Part shown: positions 16,828 through 56,311 of the stretch, one piece after another
Layout of the letters: each line of letters begins with the position of its first letter
How positions within the stretch are numbered: the stretch's first letter is position 1
Assembly: GCA_003222115.1 (NCBI GenBank)
Contig: QHUL01000056.1
Location: 16,998 to 80,997, forward strand
Length of the DNA: 64,000 bases
Direction of reading: 5' to 3'
DNA from: Gemmatimonadota bacterium
GTDB lineage: Bacteria > Gemmatimonadota > Gemmatimonadetes > Gemmatimonadales > GWC2-71-9
Notes under the pieces: model-generated
The model's input: the letters and a program-made list of their open reading frames with translations, nothing else
Told to the model about the DNA's origin: nothing
Databases searched by the model: none
Made by a program: the position numbers and the translations under genes

Positions 16828-17217
16828 ATGACCCGCTTGCCGCTGCTGCTCGCGGCCCTCGTGGCCGTCACCACTCCGCTCGCCGCCCAATCGACGGCAC
16901 CGCGTCACCCCCGACTCGAGGGCACTTGGCAGGCGAAGACCGAGGACGAGATCCGCAACATCACCGTGCGGACCGACAGCTCGGCGCAGTTCGGCGAGCA
17001 GGTCGCGCGCTGGCGCGTGGTCGCGGACAGCCTCTGGATCACGGTGGGCGACGGCGTGTGGCAGGTGTATGGGATGAAGCTGGACGGCGAGAAGCTGACC
17101 ATTTCGGGCGGCGATCTCGAGAAACCGGTCACGCTGCGGCGCATCGGGCCGGCGACGGCGCGAGCCGACTCGGTGGCCATCCCCGCGCCCCCGCCGCCGA
17201 CCGAGCGGGCCTGGTGA
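16828..17217 (+). CDS. Hypothetical secreted protein
   Basis: Signal peptide MTRLPLLLAALVAVTTPLAAQ and good codon bias. No family recognised. Confidence 0.5.
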   Translation: MTRLPLLLAALVAVTTPLAAQSTAPRHPRLEGTWQAKTEDEIRNITVRTDSSAQFGEQVARWRVVADSLWITVGDGVWQVYGMKLDGEKLTISGGDLEKPVTLRRIGPATARADSVAIPAPPPPTERAW

Positions 17218-41730: not shown

Positions 41731-42617
41731 CGGGCACCGTCGTCACCGTCGGTACGTTCGACGGGATCCACCGGGGCCACCAGGCGGTCGTGGCCGAGGT
41801 CGTGCGGAGGGCGCGGGAGGCAGGGCTCGAGGCGGTCCTCGTCACGTTCGACCCGCACCCGCTCGCGGTCGTGAATCCGGCGGCGGCGCCCCAGCTGCTC
41901 ACGCTGCCCGACGAGAAGCGGGAGCTCTTGGCGCGGACGGGGCTCGACCGGGTGGAGCTGTTGCCGTTCACACCGGAGCTCGCCCGGCTCGGGCCCGAGG
42001 AGTTCGTGCGCGACGTCCTGCGGGCGCGCTACGCGATGCACGCCCTGGTGCTCGGGTACGATCACGGCTTCGGCCGCAGCCGCTCGGGGGATGTCGAAGC
42101 GGTGCGCCGGATCGGGGCGCGCGACGGGTTCGGGGTGGACGTGGTGGACGCCGTGCGGGAGGACGGGCAGCCGATTTCCTCGACCGTGATCCGGGCGGCA
42201 GTGGCGCATGGCGACCTCGCCGCGGCCGAGCGTGGGCTGGGCCGGCCCCATAGCCTGCGCGGCGTGGTCGAGCGGGGAGTGGGGCGCGGCCGCACGATCG
42301 GGGTCCCGACGCTCAACCTGGCGCCGCCCGACCCCCGCAAGCTACTGCCTCCCGACGGGGTATATGCGGTGCGGGTGGAGTGGCGCGGAGAGCGGCTCGG
42401 CGGGATGATGAACCAGGGGCCGCGCCCCACGTTCGGGATCGCGGCACGGGCGCTCGAAATCCACCTGTTCGACTTTGCCGGCGACCTGTACGGCGAGTCG
42501 GTGAGAGTGGAGTGGGTGCGCCGCCTGCGCGACGTGCAGGCGTTTCCCTCCCGCGAGGCGCTCGTCCAGCAGCTCGAGCGCGACCGGGTGGCGGCGCGAC
42601 AGACCCTGAACCTCTGA
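41727..42617 (+). CDS. ribF: Bifunctional riboflavin kinase / FMN adenylyltransferase
   Basis: GTGA overlap. VGTFDGIHRGHQ and PTLN motifs. Confidence 0.9.
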   Translation: MTGTVVTVGTFDGIHRGHQAVVAEVVRRAREAGLEAVLVTFDPHPLAVVNPAAAPQLLTLPDEKRELLARTGLDRVELLPFTPELARLGPEEFVRDVLRARYAMHALVLGYDHGFGRSRSGDVEAVRRIGARDGFGVDVVDAVREDGQPISSTVIRAAVAHGDLAAAERGLGRPHSLRGVVERGVGRGRTIGVPTLNLAPPDPRKLLPPDGVYAVRVEWRGERLGGMMNQGPRPTFGIAARALEIHLFDFAGDLYGESVRVEWVRRLRDVQAFPSREALVQQLERDRVAARQTLNL

Positions 42618-47768: not shown

Positions 47769-48163
47769 TGCGCAAGACCAAAGGCCTGGGCATCGTGGCG
47801 ACCGACGCCGCGCCCCAGGCGATCGGCCCCTACAGCCAAGCCGTCACGACCGATGGGATGATCTACACGGCGGGGCAGATCCCGATCGATCCCGGCACGG
47901 GCCAGGTGGTGGGGAAGACCACCGCCGAGCAGACGGACCAGGTGATGAAGAACCTGCGGGCGATCCTCGAGGCCGCGGGCTCCGCGCTCGACAACGTCGT
48001 CAAGACGACCGTATATCTCGTCGACATGGCCGACTTCCCGCAGATGAACGACGTGTACGCGAAGCACTTCGGGAGGCACAAGCCGGCGCGTTCGACGGTG
48101 CAGGCCGCCGCGCTGCCGAAAGGCGTGCGCGTCGAGATCGACGCGATCGCGCTGCGCGGCTAG
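47768..48163 (+). CDS. ridA: RidA/YjgF family reactive-intermediate deaminase
   Basis: TGATG overlap with fhs. AIGPYSQAV and ARSTVQAAALPKGVRVEIDAIA motifs. Confidence 0.88.
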   Translation: MRKTKGLGIVATDAAPQAIGPYSQAVTTDGMIYTAGQIPIDPGTGQVVGKTTAEQTDQVMKNLRAILEAAGSALDNVVKTTVYLVDMADFPQMNDVYAKHFGRHKPARSTVQAAALPKGVRVEIDAIALRG

Positions 48164-48220
48164 GGGCGCGCCCCCGTACTGCGTTGGCGGGCATGGAGAT
48201 GACGGGGCCGCCGCCGTTTC

Positions 48221-48262
48221 TGTCACGCTGATTTCACGCTGCCGCCGGAGATTGCTTCCGGA
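48221..48262 (+). promoter_or_regulatory. Promoter block P1: direct 8-mer repeat TCACGCTG-N3-TCACGCTG (11-bp period) followed by GAGATT
   Basis: Boxes at 48223-48230 and 48234-48241. GAGATT at 48248-48253. The whole 42-nt block recurs at 48700-48741 (41/42 identical). Confidence 0.5.
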
Positions 48263-48301
48263 TGTCGGGCCTCACCGTGTGACATCGAACCAGGAGGCAG
48301 C

Positions 48302-48451
48302 ATGCCCACCGGAAAGCGCATCAGCCTGAAGCTGACCCCGCAGCAGAAGGAAGAGATCATGAAGGCGACGGGGAAGAAGGCCGAAGAGCTCCAGTTCACC
48401 GTCGAGGAGCTGGAAGAGCGGATCGCGCCACTCAGGACGTACAAGTTCTAG
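48302..48451 (+). CDS. Small acidic Lys/Glu-rich peptide, 49 aa (copy 1); family not recognised
   Basis: Strong SD AGGAGG at 48292-48297, 4 nt before the ATG. MPTGKRISLKLTPQQKEEIMKATGKKAEELQFTVEELEERIAPLRTYKF. Good GC3 bias. Too short for the ORF track. Confidence 0.65.
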   Translation: MPTGKRISLKLTPQQKEEIMKATGKKAEELQFTVEELEERIAPLRTYKF

Positions 48452-48505
48452 CTTGCGAGAGCCTCGCCCCGGTGGTGTCGCTGTATCGACCCTGCGATCC
48501 GAGCC

Positions 48506-48688
48506 GTGGTGGGCGACGACGCTCCGGAGCAGGAGGGCCCGCTGCTCGATCGCATCGTGGTGGAGGTGATCTACACGTTCTCGCGGGCGATCGAGCACAC
48601 GCCCGCGTTCCTGCACGAGGTACACAAGGTGTTGCGGCGAAACGGGATCCGGCGGCTGGATCACGCCGTGCAGCTGCTCACGTTCTGA
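48506..48688 (+). CDS. Hypothetical small protein (60 aa or fewer) between the two peptide copies
   Basis: Protein-like composition (LLDRIVVEVIYTFSRAIEHTPAFLHEVHKVLRRNGIRRLDHAVQLLTF) and nearly all G/C at third codon positions. Start uncertain. Confidence 0.4.
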   Translation: MVGDDAPEQEGPLLDRIVVEVIYTFSRAIEHTPAFLHEVHKVLRRNGIRRLDHAVQLLTF

Positions 48689-48699
48689 GGCGAACGCCG

Positions 48700-48741
48700 T
48701 GTCACGGTGATTTCACGCTGCCGCCGGAGATTGCTTCCGGA
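48700..48741 (+). promoter_or_regulatory. Promoter block P2: second copy of the direct-repeat block (TCACGGTG-N3-TCACGCTG, then GAGATT)
   Basis: Boxes at 48702-48709 and 48713-48720. GAGATT at 48727-48732. Confidence 0.45.
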
Positions 48742-48775
48742 CCTGAAGCTGACCCCGCAGCAGAAGGAAGAGATC

Positions 48776-48880
48776 ATGAAGGCGACGGGGAAGAATGCCG
48801 AGGAGCTGGAGTTCGGCGTCGAGGAGCTGGAAGAGCGGATCGCGCCCCTCAAGTTTGGGGCGAGCGGCGGTCTGCAGTAA
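48776..48880 (+). CDS. Second, 5'-truncated copy of the small acidic peptide (34 aa from the internal Met; the frame is open from 48689)
   Basis: The stretch from 48742 onward is about 93% identical to 48325-48436, but 62 nt carrying the SD and ATG of copy 1 are missing. The retained ATG at 48776 is preceded by aaggaag. The tail diverges (APLKFGASGGLQ versus APLRTYKF). Confidence 0.4.
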   Translation: MKATGKNAEELEFGVEELEERIAPLKFGASGGLQ

Positions 48881-48907
48881 CCGCTGCGCGCGGCCTCGCG
48901 CGCGCCA

Positions 48908-48951
48908 CGCCGGTGATGCGGCCTCCCGGGCCCGTCGCCGGCGGTTTTTTT
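48908..48951 (+). terminator. Intrinsic terminator of the peptide cassette
   Basis: Stem cgccggtga (48908-48916) pairs with tcgccggcg (48935-48943) around an inner GC hairpin. T7 follows at 48945-48951 and overlaps the stop of the convergent regulator gene. Confidence 0.6.
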
Positions 48952-51229
48952 ACCTGCGCAGCGGCTGTGGTGGCTCCGGGGCGGCGAGGTCCAGGTCGCC
49001 GTGCTCGATCCCGCGCGCCGGCGTCGGTTTGCGGCGTGGAGTGCGCGGCGGCTCGGCCCAGCCGGCGAGGCGGAGCAGCTCCGCCGTGGAGCGGTTCACC
49101 GCGTCGGCTTCGGGGCCCGGCTGCGCGAGCGTCGAGGCGACGTCCAGCCAGGACAGCGCTTCTTCGAACGCGTAGCGCCCCGCCGCCGCCTCGCTCGCCA
49201 GCAGCGCGTAACGGTAGGCCAGGGGGCGCTCGCCCCCGCGCTCGGCATGCCGGGCGATCTCGCCGGCTACCTCGCGCAGGCCGGCGGCCGGGGTCACGGT
49301 TTCGAGCGAGAGTGCGATTGCCCGATGCAGCTCGTGCCGGCGCGCGGGGGTGAGCCCGTCGCGCACGACCTCCGCGATCATCGGGTGCGCGCAGCGGTAG
49401 ACGCCCCCCTCTTCGGCCAGGAGGCGACGCTCGACCAGCGCGTCGGCCAGTGCGGCCGCGCGCAGCCGGGACATGCCGTGCACGGACGACACGAGGTCGG
49501 TGCGGATGCCGCGACCGGCGACGGCGACCGTGGCCAGCAGGTCGCGCAGCTCGTACGGCAGCCCCGCCACACGTTCCGCGATGGCGTCGTGCACGGTGCG
49601 AGGCATCTGCAGGTGACCGTAGCTCACCCCGCTCGGCACGCTGGGCGCGACCCACTCCCCCGTGCCCGGCGCGATCGCCAGGAGCCCCTGGGCGAACAGC
49701 GTCTTGATGAGCTCGACGACGTGGAACGGGTTGCCGTCCGTGACCGCGTGTACCCGCTCCGCGAAGCGGCGGCCGCCGGTCGGCGCGCTGATCCGGCCCA
49801 TCTCACGGATCAGGAGCCACACCTCGTCCTTGGTGAGCGGCGCCAGCGCGACCACGCTCGCGTGAGCGTGGGTGCGGAGGGCCCGCGCGAGCCGCGCCGC
49901 CGGGGCATCCCGCTCGAACTCGCCCAGCGTCAGCGTCGCCACGACCGCGACTGGTGAGCGCTCGAAGCGCCGCGCGAGGAAATGCAGCAGCGCGCAACTC
50001 TCGGTGTCGCACCATTGCACATCGTCGATGAACACGATCGTCGGCCGTTCTGCGGCGATCGACAGGACGAGCTGCGCGATTCCCTCGAACAGGCGCCAGC
50101 GGCGATCCACGTCCACCGCCGCGGCGGCCTCGGGCAGCGTGGGAAAGCGCTGCCGCAGCTCCGGGAGCAGCCGCGTGACCTCCGCGAGCCACTCGGGCGC
50201 CGTGCCCGCCAGACCGGGCGTCTGCAGCACGCCCCGCAGCGCCTCCAGGAACGGGCCGTACGGGATGCCGGTTTGCGCGTCGTAGCCGCGCCCCCGCAGC
50301 ACCGTGGCGCCCGCGGTGAGCGCCCAGCGCGAGAAGTCTTCGGCCAGGCGCGTCTTCCCCACACCCGCCTCGCCCTCGATCACGACGACCCGCCCCGCGT
50401 CCCGCGTGACCGCGTCCCAGACGCCCATGAGCGTGCGCCACTGTGAGTCGCGCCCGACGAGGCTCGCTTCGAAGGACGGCGCGGAGGGAGAGAGGTCCGC
50501 GGCACCCCTCCGCCGCGGGCGTTCCGCGTCGCGCTCGATGCGGCGCACCAGCTCGAGCATCGTGGCGCTCGGCGGAGCGGCGATCTCGTGCGCCAGACGG
50601 TCCCGGTACTCCCGGAAGCGCGCCAGGGCCGCGGCACCGTCGCCGGCCAGGTACAGCGACTCGATCACCAGTCTCGCGGCCTCGTCGGACAGAGGCTCGC
50701 AGGCGAGCCAGCGCTCCGCCCAGCCCAGCGCCTCACGCCAGTGCGATTGGGCGATCGCTTCGCGCGCCAGTCCGCGCAGCAGCTCGCCGAAGCGCCGCAG
50801 CAACCAGCGCCGCTTCACGCTGGCCCACTCCTCGAATACCGGCGCGTGACGCAGCGCGAATCCCGTCAGAAACCGGGGGACGTCGAAGCCCGCGGCCTCG
50901 CGCGGGGAGCGCTCCAACGCGTGGAGGAACTGGGTGACGTCGCACTCGATCGATCCCCGCACCTGCACGGCGTGGCGGTCCACGTGGAGCAGGTCGCCCA
51001 CGGCCGCGCGCAACCGCTTCAGCGCCTGGCGCAGCGAGGCGCGGGCTGCCGCATCGGTGGAGTCGCCCCACAACAGGGCGGCGAGCTCCTCACGCGTGTG
51101 GGCGCCGGGCTCCAGTGTCAGATAGGCGAGCAGGGCGATGTTCTTGGCCCCGCCGATGCCGCGCGCGGGCGTGACGTGCGACCGGGCGACGGCCGGCGGA
51201 CCGAGCAGGTTGAGCGCGAGGCCGGCCAC
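48950..51229 (-). CDS. SARP/BTAD-family transcriptional activator fused to an AAA/NB-ARC-like ATPase and a TPR-like C-terminal region
   Basis: Winged-helix LLAYLTLEPGAHTREELAALLWG, BTAD region (EWASVKRRWLLRRF...ALARFREYRDRLAHEI), and Walker A GEAGVGKTRLAEDF. The start is set at GTG 51229 (VVAGLALNLLGPP); the listed ATG at 51358 is also possible. Confidence 0.75.
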   Translation of the reverse strand: MAGLALNLLGPPAVARSHVTPARGIGGAKNIALLAYLTLEPGAHTREELAALLWGDSTDAAARASLRQALKRLRAAVGDLLHVDRHAVQVRGSIECDVTQFLHALERSPREAAGFDVPRFLTGFALRHAPVFEEWASVKRRWLLRRFGELLRGLAREAIAQSHWREALGWAERWLACEPLSDEAARLVIESLYLAGDGAAALARFREYRDRLAHEIAAPPSATMLELVRRIERDAERPRRRGAADLSPSAPSFEASLVGRDSQWRTLMGVWDAVTRDAGRVVVIEGEAGVGKTRLAEDFSRWALTAGATVLRGRGYDAQTGIPYGPFLEALRGVLQTPGLAGTAPEWLAEVTRLLPELRQRFPTLPEAAAAVDVDRRWRLFEGIAQLVLSIAAERPTIVFIDDVQWCDTESCALLHFLARRFERSPVAVVATLTLGEFERDAPAARLARALRTHAHASVVALAPLTKDEVWLLIREMGRISAPTGGRRFAERVHAVTDGNPFHVVELIKTLFAQGLLAIAPGTGEWVAPSVPSGVSYGHLQMPRTVHDAIAERVAGLPYELRDLLATVAVAGRGIRTDLVSSVHGMSRLRAAALADALVERRLLAEEGGVYRCAHPMIAEVVRDGLTPARRHELHRAIALSLETVTPAAGLREVAGEIARHAERGGERPLAYRYALLASEAAAGRYAFEEALSWLDVASTLAQPGPEADAVNRSTAELLRLAGWAEPPRTPRRKPTPARGIEHGDLDLAAPEPPQPLRR

Positions 51230-51274
51230 AACCCCCAGCGGTTTGCGAGGTGGGACTAACCTACGCCCCCGCCG

Positions 51275-51306
51275 GGCGACGGCAAGGGATCCCCGTCGCC
51301 TTGACA
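51275..51306. promoter_or_regulatory. Inverted repeat GGCGACGG-N10-CCGTCGCC abutting a TTGACA hexamer in the divergent intergenic region
   Basis: Arms at 51275-51282 and 51293-51300. TTGACA at 51301-51306. No convincing -10 element follows. Confidence 0.3.
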
Positions 51307-51336: not shown

Positions 51337-53277
51337 ATGGCCGACGAGTCCGGCGCACCGGCCGTCCCGGCCGAAGACCTCCGCGTGGAGCTCGAACGCC
51401 TTCGCCTGCTGCACTCGATCAGCCAGGAATTCAACTCCTCACTCGACTTCGACGAGCTGCTCCCCAAGGTTTTCGACACAGTAGTCACCGCGGTCGGCGC
51501 CGCGGGCGGCTCGCTGTGGATCGCGGAAGGCGACGTGCTGCGCTGCAAGCTCGCGCTGGGTGCCGCGAGCCAGAAGCTGATCGGGACCACGATGCCGATC
51601 GGCACCGGCTTCGTCGGCGACGTGGCTCGGAAGCAGCGCACCACGATCGTCAGGGACGCGATGCTGGACGCGCGCTTCCAGCAGCGGGTGGACCGCTCGA
51701 GTACTCTGATCACGACGACCCTGATGGCCACCCCGATGCTGACGAAGGGCATCACGGTCGGCGCGATCCAGGTCGTCAACAAGGTCAGGGGCGACGGCAT
51801 CTTCGATGACCGCGACCGGGAGATCCTGGAGGGGCTGGCGGCGAGCGCGGCGGTGGCGCTCCGCAACGCCCAGCTCCACGCGGCCGAGAAGCGCGCCCGC
51901 GACCTCGCCGTGCTGCTCGAGATCAGCCGCGAGATCACCTCGACGCTCGACCTCGACCACGTGTTGCAGTCCGTGGTGAACCTCGCGTCGCGCGCGCTCA
52001 CCTTCGATCAGGGGGCGGTCGGGCTGCTCGAGAAGCAGCAGTGCGAGATCCGCGCCATCGCGGGCCACGAGCAGGTGGACCAGAAGGGCGAGCGGACCAA
52101 GCGGCTGGCGCGTCGCGCTGCGTGGCTCGTGGAGCGGGGCGAGACCTTTTACCTGCCGGATCGTGCGCGCCCGGCGTCCGACGTCGAGCGCGGCTTCGTC
52201 GCCGCGTTCGGCGCCGAGCTGGAGGCCGAAGAGCTGGCCAGCGGGTTGTACCTGCCGCTCAAGGACGAGGAAGGCATGCTGGGGGTGCTCTTGTTCGAGG
52301 CGAAGCGCCCCGGCTTTGCGAGCGAGACCCAGCGCGAGCTGGCGGAGATCCTCGCCAACCAGACGACCGTGGCGCTGCGCAACGCCCAGCTCTACAACCA
52401 GGTGCCGCTGGTGGACGCCCTCGGTGCGCTCGCCGCCAAGAAGCGCGCGCTCATGCAGCTGCCGCGGCGCCGCCGTCAGCTCTACGCCGGCGCCGTGGTG
52501 GCCGCCATCGCGGGGTTCACGCTGATCCGCTGGCCACTGCGCGTCGACGGAGCGAACCCGACGTTCCGTGCGTCCGCCTACGTCGAGGCGCGGACGCTGG
52601 TGCCGGGGATCGTGGAACGCGTGCTGGTGCACGAAGGGACCGAGGTGGGCCGCGGGGCTCCGATCCTGCAGCTGCGCGACGCCGAGTTGCGGGCGGAGCG
52701 CGAGGCGGCGGCGGCGGAGGCGGCCGCTGCCGAGCGGTCGGCGGCAGTGGCGGCGAGCCGCGGCAATCCGGCGGAGGAGCGGCTGCAGCGCACCCGGGCC
52801 CAGGCTTTCCGCCGGGAGGTGGCCCTGCTCGACGACGAGGTCGGCTCTACCACAGTGCGCGCGCCGGTCAGCGGCATGGTGCTCACGCCGCGACCCGAGG
52901 AGCGCCTGGGCGCTCGGCTCGAAGCCGGGGACCTGGCGGTGACGCTCGGGCGCACGGACACGCTCGAGCTCGAGTTCGGCGTGGCGCAGCGCGACATCGC
53001 TCGCGTGGCCGCGGGCCAGACCGTCCGGCTGCGCGTCGACGCGCTTCCCCAGCGCACCTTCGAAGGCCGCGTCAGCTTTCTCGGCGAGCTGCCGGTCGAC
53101 TCGCTGCCGGACGTCCGCTTTCCCGTGCGGGCCAAGGTCCCCAATCCCGACGGGCTGCTGCGGCCGGGAATGGCGGCGCACGTCAAGGTGCTGACACGGT
53201 CCACGTCGGTCGCCGGCCGCGCGCTGCGCGGGCCGGTGCGCTGGTTGCGGCTCGTGTGGTGGCGGATGTGGGCGTGA
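51337..53277 (+). CDS. Tandem GAF domains, one TM helix, and a HlyD-family membrane-fusion (periplasmic adaptor) domain
   Basis: Two GAF-like blocks, each ending in ..ALRNAQL. TM segment LYAGAVVAAIAGFTLI. HlyD-type lipoyl/coiled-coil/beta-barrel region (VRAPVSGMVL, GQTVRLRVDALP). Confidence 0.75.
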   Translation: MADESGAPAVPAEDLRVELERLRLLHSISQEFNSSLDFDELLPKVFDTVVTAVGAAGGSLWIAEGDVLRCKLALGAASQKLIGTTMPIGTGFVGDVARKQRTTIVRDAMLDARFQQRVDRSSTLITTTLMATPMLTKGITVGAIQVVNKVRGDGIFDDRDREILEGLAASAAVALRNAQLHAAEKRARDLAVLLEISREITSTLDLDHVLQSVVNLASRALTFDQGAVGLLEKQQCEIRAIAGHEQVDQKGERTKRLARRAAWLVERGETFYLPDRARPASDVERGFVAAFGAELEAEELASGLYLPLKDEEGMLGVLLFEAKRPGFASETQRELAEILANQTTVALRNAQLYNQVPLVDALGALAAKKRALMQLPRRRRQLYAGAVVAAIAGFTLIRWPLRVDGANPTFRASAYVEARTLVPGIVERVLVHEGTEVGRGAPILQLRDAELRAEREAAAAEAAAAERSAAVAASRGNPAEERLQRTRAQAFRREVALLDDEVGSTTVRAPVSGMVLTPRPEERLGARLEAGDLAVTLGRTDTLELEFGVAQRDIARVAAGQTVRLRVDALPQRTFEGRVSFLGELPVDSLPDVRFPVRAKVPNPDGLLRPGMAAHVKVLTRSTSVAGRALRGPVRWLRLVWWRMWA

Positions 53278-54251
53278 GCCGCGTCGGCCTCGCCGGGCTT
53301 GCCGCCTGCGCCGGCGCGTTGCTCGCCGCCGGGTGCGGCGGGTCGGCGCGATCGGACACGCCCGACGCCGCGCGCCCGCCGGCTCCGCTCGTGGCGATCG
53401 AGAGTTCCACGGTGGACGTGCCACTGTCGCTGCCCGCCCAGCTCTACGTGGAGCACGACGCACTCGTGTACGCACGCACCACGGGTATCGTCGAATCGGT
53501 GTACGTCGAGCTGGGCGCGCCGGTCGACCAGGGCCAGCTCTTGGCGCAGCTCGAGCACACCGATCAGGAGATCGCGCTGGCGCAGTCCGACCACGCCTAC
53601 CAGGCCGCCCTCCGGGAAGTGGGGCGCGCGCGCGAGCTGATGAAGGTGCGGGCCATCACGACCGCCGACTCCGAGCAGGCCGAGCTCACCTATCAACGGG
53701 CGGAGCTCGCGCAGCGGCAGACCCGGCGCAACTACGAGCTGACCCGGATCGCGGCGCCGTTCGGCGGCGTCGTGACCGCCCGCACGGTGCGACCGGGGCG
53801 TCTCGTGACGCTGGGCGACTCGCTGTTTCGCGTCTCCGCGCTCGGCCCGCTGCGCGTGTCCGTCCGCGTGCCGGAGGGCCCGAGCGCCGGACTCACGCCG
53901 GGGGCCCGGGCGGAAGTGGTGGGGCAGGACGGCGCCGTGGCCCGCGCCACGGTCGTCCGGGCTTCCCCCGCGATTGACGCGGCGAGCGGAACGCGCGAGG
54001 TGCTGGTGGAGCTTGCCCCGGGAGCGCCGTTGCGGCCGGGGGCGAGCGTCACCGTGCGGGTCGGCGCGGAGCGGCGCCGGATCATCGCCATTCCGCCGGG
54101 AGCGCTGGCCGAGCAAGGCTATGTGCTCGTGTGGGAGAACGGGCGCACCGTGCTGCGCGCCGTCACGCTGGGCGCCCGGCTCGCCGACGGCCGCCTCGAG
54201 GTCATGAGCGGCCTCGCCGCCGGCGAGCAGATCGTCAGTCGCGGCCGGTGA
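53274..54251 (+). CDS. HlyD/RND-type periplasmic adaptor lipoprotein
   Basis: GTGA overlap. Lipobox LLAAGC. TGIVESVYVELGAPVDQGQLLAQL, IAAPFGGVVTART. Confidence 0.8.
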   Translation: MSRVGLAGLAACAGALLAAGCGGSARSDTPDAARPPAPLVAIESSTVDVPLSLPAQLYVEHDALVYARTTGIVESVYVELGAPVDQGQLLAQLEHTDQEIALAQSDHAYQAALREVGRARELMKVRAITTADSEQAELTYQRAELAQRQTRRNYELTRIAAPFGGVVTARTVRPGRLVTLGDSLFRVSALGPLRVSVRVPEGPSAGLTPGARAEVVGQDGAVARATVVRASPAIDAASGTREVLVELAPGAPLRPGASVTVRVGAERRRIIAIPPGALAEQGYVLVWENGRTVLRAVTLGARLADGRLEVMSGLAAGEQIVSRGR

Positions 54252-56311
54252 GCCGTCCCCGCCTGCGCTCCGATCTCGTCATGGTGGAGCAGAGCTACCG
54301 CGGCGAGCGGAGCTACATCGTCAAGGACCCCGCGACCCACAAGTACTTCCGGTTCCGGCCGCTCGAGATGATGGTGATGGAGCAGTTCGATGGGGAGCAG
54401 ACGCCGGCCGAGGTGGCCGCCGTGCTGGCCGCGCAGGGCCCGCCGTTCTCGGTCGCGGCGATCGAGAGCTTCGCGCGCAAGCTCGCCCACATGGACCTGT
54501 TGGCGCGCTCGACGGCCGAGCGCTCCGTGCTTCAGATGGAGCGGCTGCGCGCCGAGCGGCAGCGGCGCATCCGCCGCACGCACTACCAGGGGAGCCTGCT
54601 CCGCATGCGCTGGTCGGTCGGCGACCCGGACCGGCTGTTCGACCGGTGGACGCCGCGGCTGCGGTTCTTCTTCTCGCGCCCGTTCCTCGCCCTGTCCGTC
54701 GCCCTGTTCGTCGTGTACTGCGTGATCGCGGTGGCGAAGTGGTCGGATCTGTCGCGCGGCATGGCGGCGCTCTACACGCCCAGCACGTACACCATCGGGA
54801 CCGTCGTGCTCTTCTGGAGCGCCCTGATGGTGGTCGTGTGCGTGCACGAGCTGGGGCACGGCTTCACGTGCAAGTACTTCGGGGGGCAGGTGCACGAGCT
54901 GGGGGCCATGCTGATCTACTTCCAGCCCGCGTTCTACTGTAACGTCAACGACGCGTGGACCTTTCCGGACCTGCGCGCGCGGCTGTGGGTGACGGCCGCC
55001 GGCTCGTGGATCCAGCTCGTGCTCGCGGCGCTCGCGGCGATCGTGTGGTGGCTCGCCCAACCGGGGACGCTGATCTCGCAGCTGGCGCTGTTCCTGGTGG
55101 TGATCGGGGGCGTCACGACTGTCGTGGCCAACGCCAACCCCTTGATCCCGCTCGACGGCTATTACGCGCTCAGTGACTACCTCGGAATTCCCAACCTGCG
55201 GGCCCGGGCGTTGGGCTACATGGCGTGGCTCGTCAAGCGGCACGTCCTGAGACTCACGGTCCCGCCCCCGCCGGCGGACGCTCACGAGCGGTGCGTCTTC
55301 GCGACCTACGGCACGCTCGCGCTGCTCTACTCGACCGGCCTGCTGCTGTTTCTCGTCGCAGCGATTTTCGGATGGGTGGGCCGGACGTGGGGGACGGTCG
55401 GTACCCTGGCCTTCGCCGTCGCGCTGTGGACGATGCTGCGCGGGCGGCTGCGCGCCGCGGCACGTGCCGTCATGGCGTCGCTGCGGGAGCATCGGACCGA
55501 GTGGAGGTCGCCGCGACGGCGCCGGTGGCTTGCCGGCGGGGCCCTCGCGGCCCTGCTGCTCGGCGTCGTGGTGCCGTGGCCCATCACGGTCGGCGGCGCC
55601 TTCACCGCCGCCGCTCCGCTGGAGCTCGACCTCAAGGCACCGGAGGGTGCCGTCGTCGTGCAGGCCCGCGCCGCCGAGGGGACCCGCGTGGCGGCGGGAG
55701 CGCCGGTCCTCGTGTTCCGCGACCCCGACCTCGAGCGGCGCGCCATCGGCGTCCGCCGCCTCGCCGACTCCCTGGCCGCGCTGGAAGGCGCGGCGCGGGC
55801 GGTCGGCCGCACGGACGAGGCGCGGCGGCTCGAGGCCGAGCGTGCGGAACAGGAGGCGCGAGCGGCGAGCCTCGAGGTGCGGCGCCAGGCGCTCACGCTC
55901 CGCTCCCCGGTAACCGCCGTGGTCCTGACGCCGCGCCTGCAGGAACTGGTGGGCCGCCGCTTCCCGAGCGGTGCCGTGGCCGTGCGCCTGGGGACGCCCG
56001 ACTCCGTCGAGCTGCGGGTCGTGCTGGAGCGTGCCGGCGCCACACTCGTGCGGCCGGGGCAGCCGGTCGCCGTGATCGCCTATGCCGACGTCAGCCACAC
56101 CCTCCAGGGCCGGGTGGCCAGCGTGGCGACCGCCGCCGCCGGACAGGCTGGGGACGGCCAGCTCGAGGCCCGCGTGCTGGTGCCGCGCACGGCGGGCGCG
56201 TGGCGGGCCGGGGCGACGGGCGAAGCCAAGATCACCCTCCGCCGCTCGAACCTCATCGGCGCCTTGGTGTGGGCCGTACGCAAGCGCGTCCGCAGCGATC
56301 TTTTGCTCTGA
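54248..56311 (+). CDS. Fusion protein: N-terminal PqqD/winged-helix-like domain, M50 site-2 metalloprotease membrane core, and a C-terminal HlyD-like domain
   Basis: GTGA overlap. HELGH at 54845-54859 and NPLIPLDGYY near 55135-55165 are the two S2P signature motifs. The N-terminus reads YIVKDPATHKYFRFRPLEMMVMEQFDGEQTPAEVAAVL. The C-terminus reads LRSPVTAVVL...GQPVAVIAY. Confidence 0.75.
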   Translation: MSRPRLRSDLVMVEQSYRGERSYIVKDPATHKYFRFRPLEMMVMEQFDGEQTPAEVAAVLAAQGPPFSVAAIESFARKLAHMDLLARSTAERSVLQMERLRAERQRRIRRTHYQGSLLRMRWSVGDPDRLFDRWTPRLRFFFSRPFLALSVALFVVYCVIAVAKWSDLSRGMAALYTPSTYTIGTVVLFWSALMVVVCVHELGHGFTCKYFGGQVHELGAMLIYFQPAFYCNVNDAWTFPDLRARLWVTAAGSWIQLVLAALAAIVWWLAQPGTLISQLALFLVVIGGVTTVVANANPLIPLDGYYALSDYLGIPNLRARALGYMAWLVKRHVLRLTVPPPPADAHERCVFATYGTLALLYSTGLLLFLVAAIFGWVGRTWGTVGTLAFAVALWTMLRGRLRAAARAVMASLREHRTEWRSPRRRRWLAGGALAALLLGVVVPWPITVGGAFTAAAPLELDLKAPEGAVVVQARAAEGTRVAAGAPVLVFRDPDLERRAIGVRRLADSLAALEGAARAVGRTDEARRLEAERAEQEARAASLEVRRQALTLRSPVTAVVLTPRLQELVGRRFPSGAVAVRLGTPDSVELRVVLERAGATLVRPGQPVAVIAYADVSHTLQGRVASVATAAAGQAGDGQLEARVLVPRTAGAWRAGATGEAKITLRRSNLIGALVWAVRKRVRSDLLL

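Follow-up and report, generated by a model that had tools for sequence, protein, structure and literature searches.

The window, by which we mean the whole stretch of 64,000 nucleotides analysed here, has a G+C content of 72%. It contains a small cassette of two peptide genes, preceded by housekeeping genes encoding SecD, SecF, TatD, formate-tetrahydrofolate ligase and RidA. Within the RidA coding region, the minus strand at 48098-48133 matches an Rfam CRISPR direct-repeat model with 21 bits (cutoff 45) and an E value of 0.35, and this match is almost certainly due to chance. In the window's lineage, the cassette sits between RidA and the 3' end of the gene for the neighbouring regulator, REG, which is convergent with it. 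The features of the cassette, of REG and of three further genes downstream are collected in Table 1.

Table 1. Features of the peptide cassette, the regulator gene and the partner genes (window coordinates)
Feature	Position	Strand	Remarks
Distal box of promoter A, TCACGCTG	48223-48230	+	Conserved core (T)TCACG; doubles as -35-like hexamer
Proximal box of promoter A, TCACGCTG	48234-48241	+	11 bp past the distal box
-10-like hexamer GAGATT of promoter A	48248-48253	+	Assigned from conservation at a fixed distance from the boxes
Shine-Dalgarno sequence AGGAGG of peptide gene A	48292-48297	+	
Peptide gene A, 49 aa	48302-48451	+	Leader ...KATGK...EELEERIAP, tail LRTYKF
C-terminal remnant of FliB_C/CxxCxxCC gene	48506-48688	+	Outside the conserved system
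Boxes of promoter copy B, TCACGGTG-ATT-TCACGCTG	48702-48720	+	TCACGGTG at 48702-48709, TCACGCTG at 48713-48720
-10-like GAGATT of copy B	48727-48732	+	GATATT in near-identical relatives, GATGTT in L080
5'-truncated peptide gene B	48742-48880	+	Without 5'UTR, Shine-Dalgarno sequence, ATG and first codons
Intrinsic-terminator-like hairpin and T run	48932-48951	+	After peptide gene B; abuts the REG stop codon
REG, 759 aa	48950-51229	-	Winged helix, BTAD, STAND P-loop NTPase, helical C-terminal domain
Putative REG promoter TTGCCG-N16-TAGGTT	51258-51285	-	Conserved beside REG elsewhere
GAF-GAF-HlyD-type membrane-fusion protein	51337-53277	+	Conserved partner of peptide genes
Second membrane-fusion (HlyD/RND adaptor) protein	53274-54251	+	Conserved partner, 57 loci
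M50-type intramembrane HExxH metalloprotease fused to HlyD domain	54281-56311	+	Conserved partner

A scan for the peptide family with one genome per species found 79 loci, all of them from Gemmatimonadota, which commonly hold two or three tandem peptide genes. No Pfam family was found for peptide A. In alignments of the family, the leader LTPEQK...KATGK...ELEERIAP is invariant, and the tail, with 3-12 residues, is hypervariable. Judged by this conserved leader and variable tail, peptide A resembles the precursor of a RiPP or a signal peptide. A conserved leader, a variable core and a nearby protease and exporter, as in RiPP precursors, are all present, and no modification enzyme is conserved across the loci; the peptides of this family may be unmodified. 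A sub-family has a longer conserved tail ending in ...RLAANHNETLLV (L062 2500-3334, L065 4194-5131, L079 6382-6573). Its arrays contain up to five or six copies, and only the first copy is preceded by the boxes described below.

REG, the GAF-HlyD protein, the second adaptor and the M50-HlyD protease are the only window genes that are conserved around peptide genes, and no conservation of housekeeping neighbours was found there. The M50-HlyD protease is similar to daptide proteases with 200 bits, under the 300-bit cutoff. The trio at 51337-56311 is an unusual set for peptide processing and export, without an ABC transporter or a modification enzyme. A gene of the FliB_C/CxxCxxCC type, which is flagellin lysine-methylase-like, lies intact (437 aa) between both peptide genes in L080-L083 (L080 5047-6360), and only its last ~60 codons are left in the window and in L084-L087. 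A role of this gene as the missing modification enzyme was considered. However, 78 of the 79 genome loci lack it, and for this reason it was not counted among the core components; it is confined to the window's lineage and L047. The convergent position of REG is also specific to this lineage. REG is mostly divergent and directly upstream of a boxed peptide gene, typically ~200-250 nt from the first one, and the commonest order elsewhere is REG on the minus strand, divergent boxed peptide genes on the plus strand and then the three export and protease genes. Because of the rearranged order, the export and protease genes cannot share a transcript with the peptide genes in the window's lineage.

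Upstream of peptide gene A, two copies of TCACGCTG are separated by ATT, and six nucleotides lie between the proximal copy and GAGATT. The sequence at 48223-48253 thus has the layout that the initial annotation described. Read as a heptamer, the proximal box is TTCACGC at 48233-48239 and leaves a gap of 8 nt to the -10-like hexamer, and the -35-like hexamer in the distal box is 20 bp from it. From conservation, transcription of promoter A is predicted to start near 48260. The second arrangement was likewise found where it had been reported, at 48702-48732, with TCACGGTG as the distal and TCACGCTG as the proximal copy, and a pattern search showed that the tandem arrangement is limited to these two sites in the window. 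With a 34-nt matrix trained without the window, on sites from other genomes only, the two sites score 33.5 and 33.9 bits, and every other position on the two strands of the window stays at or below 8 bits. When up to two mismatches were allowed in the pattern, 3 of 100 shuffles likewise gave two tandem matches.

Isolated copies of TCACGCTG had been regarded as fortuitous and as two in number. The first part holds, as a codon-usage effect, but there are six copies, at 17129, 41899, 43921, 50815, 52517 and 54163, all on the plus strand. Four of them are inside called plus-strand genes in the frame xTC-ACG-CTG. The copy at 41899 has the same reading, LTL, outside every called gene, and the copy at 50815 is antisense within the REG gene. 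Together with the three promoter copies, TCACGCTG occurs nine times in the window against ~3 expected, and this excess is explained by codon usage.

A simple sigma-70 scan of 48100-49000 found no canonical -35/-10 pair, as is expected if the promoter depends on an activator. The usual spacer between -35 and -10 is 16-18 bp. The spacers from the two boxes are 9 and 20 bp, and either box as a true -35 was rejected.

The boxes are conserved far beyond the window. We searched the window and the 79 loci (1.18 Mb, both strands) with the pattern TCACR-N6-TCACR. Of the 115 pairs found, 107 are followed by a peptide gene on their own strand at a distance of at most 250 nt, and several of the remaining 8 precede peptide genes whose start was not called. 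The distance from the boxes to the peptide ATG is mostly 60-100 nt. The tandem-box element was seen in 71 of the 80 sources, which cover many species. Anchored on the distal box, 104 distinct sites gave the consensus wTTCACG-nTnn-wTTCACG-N9-cAgaTT, in which information is confined to wTTCACG, TTCACG and cAgaTT with near-zero conservation in between. Profile positions 0-4 of the distal box are invariant or nearly so. In the -10-like hexamer, the second position is A in 99 of the 104 sites and the sixth is T in 102. The conserved core of the boxes is the hexamer TTCACG and not the 8-mer proposed initially. In the 33 loci with two boxed promoters, the core is 89% identical and the non-core 33%, which is a classical phylogenetic footprint. 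Two further strong matrix matches lie outside the neighbourhood of recognised peptide genes, one at L043 19265-19298 (38.8 bits) with no family-like ORF downstream and one at L005 2504-2537 (20.8 bits) just before a TonB-dependent-receptor-like gene. These could be extra regulon members or decayed sites.

The two sites of the window are not independent of each other. In an alignment, 48221-48262 and 48700-48741 are identical at 41 of 42 positions and form one duplicated segment. Therefore, the repetition within the window is not independent evidence. Relative to copy 1, copy 2 lacks 62 nt that comprise the 5'UTR, AGGAGG, the ATG and eight codons. Relative to near-identical contigs, it is 65 nt shorter (window 48700-48880 versus L084 10399-10644), and the missing part is again the 5'UTR, the Shine-Dalgarno sequence and the ATG. 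In copy B, the bases that follow the proximal TCACG, up to and including the -10, are of the copy-1 (pepA) type, and the distal box is of the native pepB type. A complete second peptide gene, with its own 5'UTR, Shine-Dalgarno sequence and ATG, is present in L084, L085, L087 and L080; the intact version of peptide gene B is P0006. Its native promoter has diverged, reading TGTCACGGTG-ATT-TCACGATG-CCGCGG-GATATT in L084, with CCGCGA in L085 and L087 and GATGTT as the last hexamer in L080. The first in-frame ATG of the truncated gene B is at 48776 and is preceded by GAAGGAAGAG. If the allele is real, it could yield only a 34-aa peptide, MKATGKNAEEL...KFGASGGLQ, from this ATG. Exact look-ups of three possible copy-2 products and a metagenome scan with the junction sequence gave zero matches, so that by these searches the truncated allele has so far been seen only in the window. 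It may be a real conversion with a deletion, or an assembly fault. Of the earlier statement that boxes precede both peptide genes, the part on promoter A stands, where the gene is complete, and the part on B needs the correction that B is a recent copy on a truncated gene.

The stop codon of REG is 69 nt past the end of the peptide ORF at 48880, in agreement with the earlier observation that a SARP-type gene ends near the cassette. The start of REG is most likely GTG at 51229, as called in the near-identical contigs L084-L087. About residues 1-250 form the SARP domain, an OmpR-type winged helix followed by BTAD. Pfam recognises the BTAD (PF03704, 42.3 bits versus a cutoff of 22.1) and an AAA_16 domain (96 bits). 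Its Trans_reg_C match is weak (19.7 versus a cutoff of 26.2 bits, E 9e-4), and a search of PDB sequences with the single REG sequence gave zero matches. For these two reasons, the winged helix is assigned from a profile and from structure. A profile of 46 orthologous N-termini matched the AfsR SARP domain with an E value of 9e-12 over the winged helix and BTAD, the AfsR BTAD being matched at 8hvr chain positions 189-285. The same profile matched EmbR with an E value of 1e-9, again spanning the winged helix and BTAD. An AlphaFold model of REG (pLDDT 85.6, pTM 0.71) has the winged helix in a strand-helix-helix-helix-hairpin layout and superposes on AfsR chains bound to DNA in a transcription initiation complex, with an rmsd of 3.7 A over ~250 residues. 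The rest of the model matches the STAND proteins 6mfv, Avs3, Apaf-1 and MalT. The helical domain near the C-terminus is short, at about residues 616-722. Both the winged helix and the BTAD of the SARP family are present, and the initial classification of the neighbouring gene as SARP-type is borne out by the Pfam BTAD match, the profile and the superposition on AfsR. Orthologues are named 'DNA-binding SARP family transcriptional activator' by JGI and 'AAA family ATPase [Gemmatimonadales]' by NCBI, and all orthologues with an organism name are from Gemmatimonadota. Residues that are invariant in the N-termini of the orthologues are mostly in the winged helix.

Several observations connect REG with the boxes. 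REG is the only DNA-binding protein of the conserved cluster, and boxed peptide genes were found in 65 of 65 loci with a REG match, the match in L001 being only a 29% paralogue. Among 13 loci without REG within 10 kb, eight have no boxes and five are boxed. The association of REG with boxes has a Fisher p of 5e-8, uncorrected for phylogeny and over loci that are not phylogenetically independent. For three of the five boxed loci without REG, a REG gene is found at a different locus of the same MAG. The two with no REG orthologue in view are L069 and L030, and the MAG of L030 shows only the 29% paralogue, in L001. A sigma-70 scan upstream of the peptide genes in L023 and L044, which have neither REG nor boxes, found no promoter. 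Covariation between the recognition helix and the box was looked for, and neither varies: SLRQ in the recognition helix and TCACG in the box are both invariant, and the invariant SLRQ of the REG orthologues parallels the invariant TCACG core. From these sequence comparisons, it is most likely that REG binds the two boxes.

REG itself may be regulated through a similar box. The spacer between REG and the GAF-HlyD gene in the window keeps a motif, AACCTAC...GGCAAG, which in most loci lies ~10-40 nt upstream of the distal box and reads TTGCC-N16/17-TA(G/C)GTT on the opposite strand. On its minus strand, this motif is probably REG's own promoter, although a simple sigma-70 scan called no promoter in the REG/GAF-HlyD intergenic region. 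Of 63 promoters facing a divergent REG, 41 have a third TCACG box ~22 bp further upstream (-21 to -23). In most genomes it falls in the spacer of the putative REG promoter, and it is missing in the window. The position of the third box suggests that REG would be autoregulated.

The geometry of the boxes is that of published SARP promoters. In these promoters, the repeats are 11 or 22 bp apart, and 8 bp separate the 3' repeat from the -10 (PMC10936776, PMC11301090). The afs box is centred at -29.5 (PMC10936776), and the spacer of the afsS promoter is 20 bp (PMC10936776, PMC11301090). In our 104 sites, the period of the boxes is exactly 11 bp without exception, so that they are direct heptamer repeats with SARP-type spacing. 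The distance from the proximal heptamer TTCACGn to the -10-like hexamer is exactly 8 nt, and the repeats would overlap or replace the -35, the -10 being assigned from conservation. The distal TTCACG equals TTGACA at 4 of 6 positions and is 20 nt from the -10. The initial annotation had pointed to SARP-like spacing of 11 bp at a fixed distance from the -10, and this arrangement is equal to the published rule (PMC10936776, PMC11301090).

Among known systems, the closest parallels are found with AfsR and the afs box of afsS from Streptomyces coelicolor (PDB 8k60, 8hvr, 8jke). In both operators, two direct repeats follow each other with a period of 11 bp, and the box centre is near -30. A gap of 8 nt separates the 3' repeat from the -10. 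A poor -35-like hexamer lies 20 bp from the -10 and overlaps with the upstream repeat. REG also appears to share the domain order of AfsR, in which the SARP domain comes first, then a STAND NTPase and last a helical C-terminal domain, and residues 1-250 of the REG model can be superposed on DNA-bound AfsR with a TM score of 0.71-0.73. REG differs from AfsR in that the sequence identity is only ~25% and REG comes from a different phylum, Gemmatimonadota. It also has 759 aa instead of 993 aa, with a smaller C-terminal domain that has no Pfam TPR match. The target of AfsR is afsS, whereas the predicted targets of REG are small peptide genes, and the box core here is TTCACG. Furthermore, REG is not expected to have the partners RbpA and CarD, which are actinobacterial. 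The small SARPs ActII-ORF4, DnrI and RedD are also cluster-situated regulators; their heptameric direct repeats, sometimes three in number, are spaced by 11 or 22 bp and either overlap with the -35 or stand in for it (PMC10972967). In contrast to REG, they have <400 aa, no NTPase domain and TCGAG-type heptamers, and they control polyketide and other antibiotic clusters in actinomycetes. EmbR of Mycobacterium tuberculosis (PDB 2fez/2ff4) shares the winged helix and BTAD fold with REG, but has an FHA domain in place of the STAND NTPase, and the structural match is weaker (TM 0.49). OmpR and PhoB with the pho boxes are similar in that a winged helix reads direct repeats in tandem, with a spacing of about one helical turn, and these repeats serve in place of a -35. 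Unlike these proteins, REG lacks a receiver domain and contains BTAD and STAND domains, and the position of its boxes relative to the -10 is SARP-like.

We consider it likely that the two TTCACG boxes are a REG-bound operator of an activator-dependent promoter that switches on the peptide genes; binding by REG, activation and the transcription start are what we infer here. In each promoter a -10 (GAGATT) is recognisable, and no -35 lies at a workable distance. Two REG copies would sit side by side on the boxes, with one winged helix per box on the same face of the helix, and this pair would be centred ~30 bp upstream of the start. REG would then substitute for the absent -35 contact and bring RNA polymerase to the promoter, by which the peptide genes would be turned on. 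Replacement of the -35 contact and recruitment of RNA polymerase have been shown structurally for AfsR at the afsS promoter. Presumably, the STAND ATPase and the C-terminal domain of REG gate its activity upon a signal. In the window, promoter A would drive a complete peptide gene and promoter B would give a shortened peptide at best.

The boxes might instead be an operator that is read by a protein encoded elsewhere, such as a response regulator of the OmpR/PhoB type. Regulators of this type, too, recognise direct repeats that are spaced by about one helical turn and overlap with the -35, and the five boxed loci without REG within 10 kb would fit a reader other than REG. However, REG and boxes co-occur in 65 of 65 loci, loci without REG mostly lack boxes, and in three of the five orphan cases REG is present elsewhere in the MAG. 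Apart from REG, the conserved cluster encodes no DNA-binding protein. The gap of 8 nt before the -10 and the spacer of 20 bp are also specifically SARP-like (PMC10936776, PMC11301090). We therefore regard an external reader as unlikely. It is still less probable, at a small fraction of our confidence, that REG binds the boxes mainly as a repressor or an autoregulatory brake that occludes the promoter. Such a role would agree with the overlap of the boxes with the core promoter and, in most genomes, with the third box within the spacer of the putative divergent REG promoter. A box inside a promoter spacer is in a position typical of repression. Against this, the peptide promoters have no usable -35 and should thus be nearly silent without an activator. 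Every characterised SARP with such geometry activates (PMC10936776, PMC10972967), and the REG model superposes on AfsR as it is placed in the activation complex.

The window by itself could give the impression that the boxes are a functionless by-product of gene duplication or chance, as its two sites are one duplicated segment and shuffled sequences occasionally gave two matches when mismatches were tolerated. But the element recurs in most of the sources with a conserved core and diverged spacers, and a matrix that never saw the window gives its sites 33-34 bits and everything else in the window <8 bits. Chance or simple duplication is ruled out by these comparative data, and we give the idea almost no credence. 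Hardly any more credible is a role of the conserved sequence as RNA, in a 5' leader structure or a small RNA, for which its intergenic site upstream of very small genes might speak. No Rfam match was found for it, its folding energy is no better than that of shuffles (z 0.03), and the boxes lie upstream of the predicted transcription start. Recognition of DNA by a protein is indicated by the strict 11-bp phasing of the direct repeats and by the lack of compensatory changes.

An activator role of REG on the boxes can be extended to a larger circuit, which we put forward as a speculative and rather doubtful proposal: cells of a Gram-negative phylum would signal to each other through a peptide-based loop, with the boxes as its output switch. 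In such a loop, the M50-HlyD protease would cut the precursors, and the GAF-HlyD and HlyD proteins would export the products. The STAND and C-terminal domains of REG would sense the short variable tail, directly or indirectly. REG would then bind the boxes and autoinduce the peptide genes, and it would regulate itself via the third box. If this were true, SARP-type 'sigma adaptation' would exist beyond actinobacteria and would be tied to a new family of secreted peptides.

Reviews describe SARP regulators as exclusive to actinobacteria (PMC10972967, PMC7040171). REG departs from this description, as the 79 genome loci and the named orthologues are all from Gemmatimonadota; exclusiveness is a statement on distribution and not a structural criterion. 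The comparative sequence data support that REG and the boxes are a SARP-type pair of activator and operator in Gemmatimonadota, attached to an undescribed family of small-peptide genes. Gemmatimonadota is an abundant and barely cultured soil phylum. Across it, a regulator with a SARP domain is conserved together with an operator of exact SARP geometry. The operator is resolved to the base from ~100 natural variants, which allows AfsR-style replacement of the -35 to be tested on a non-actinobacterial RNA polymerase. In addition, an undescribed family of small genes for putatively secreted peptides is delimited together with its protease and export genes, and overexpression of REG may serve as a handle for turning these peptide genes on.
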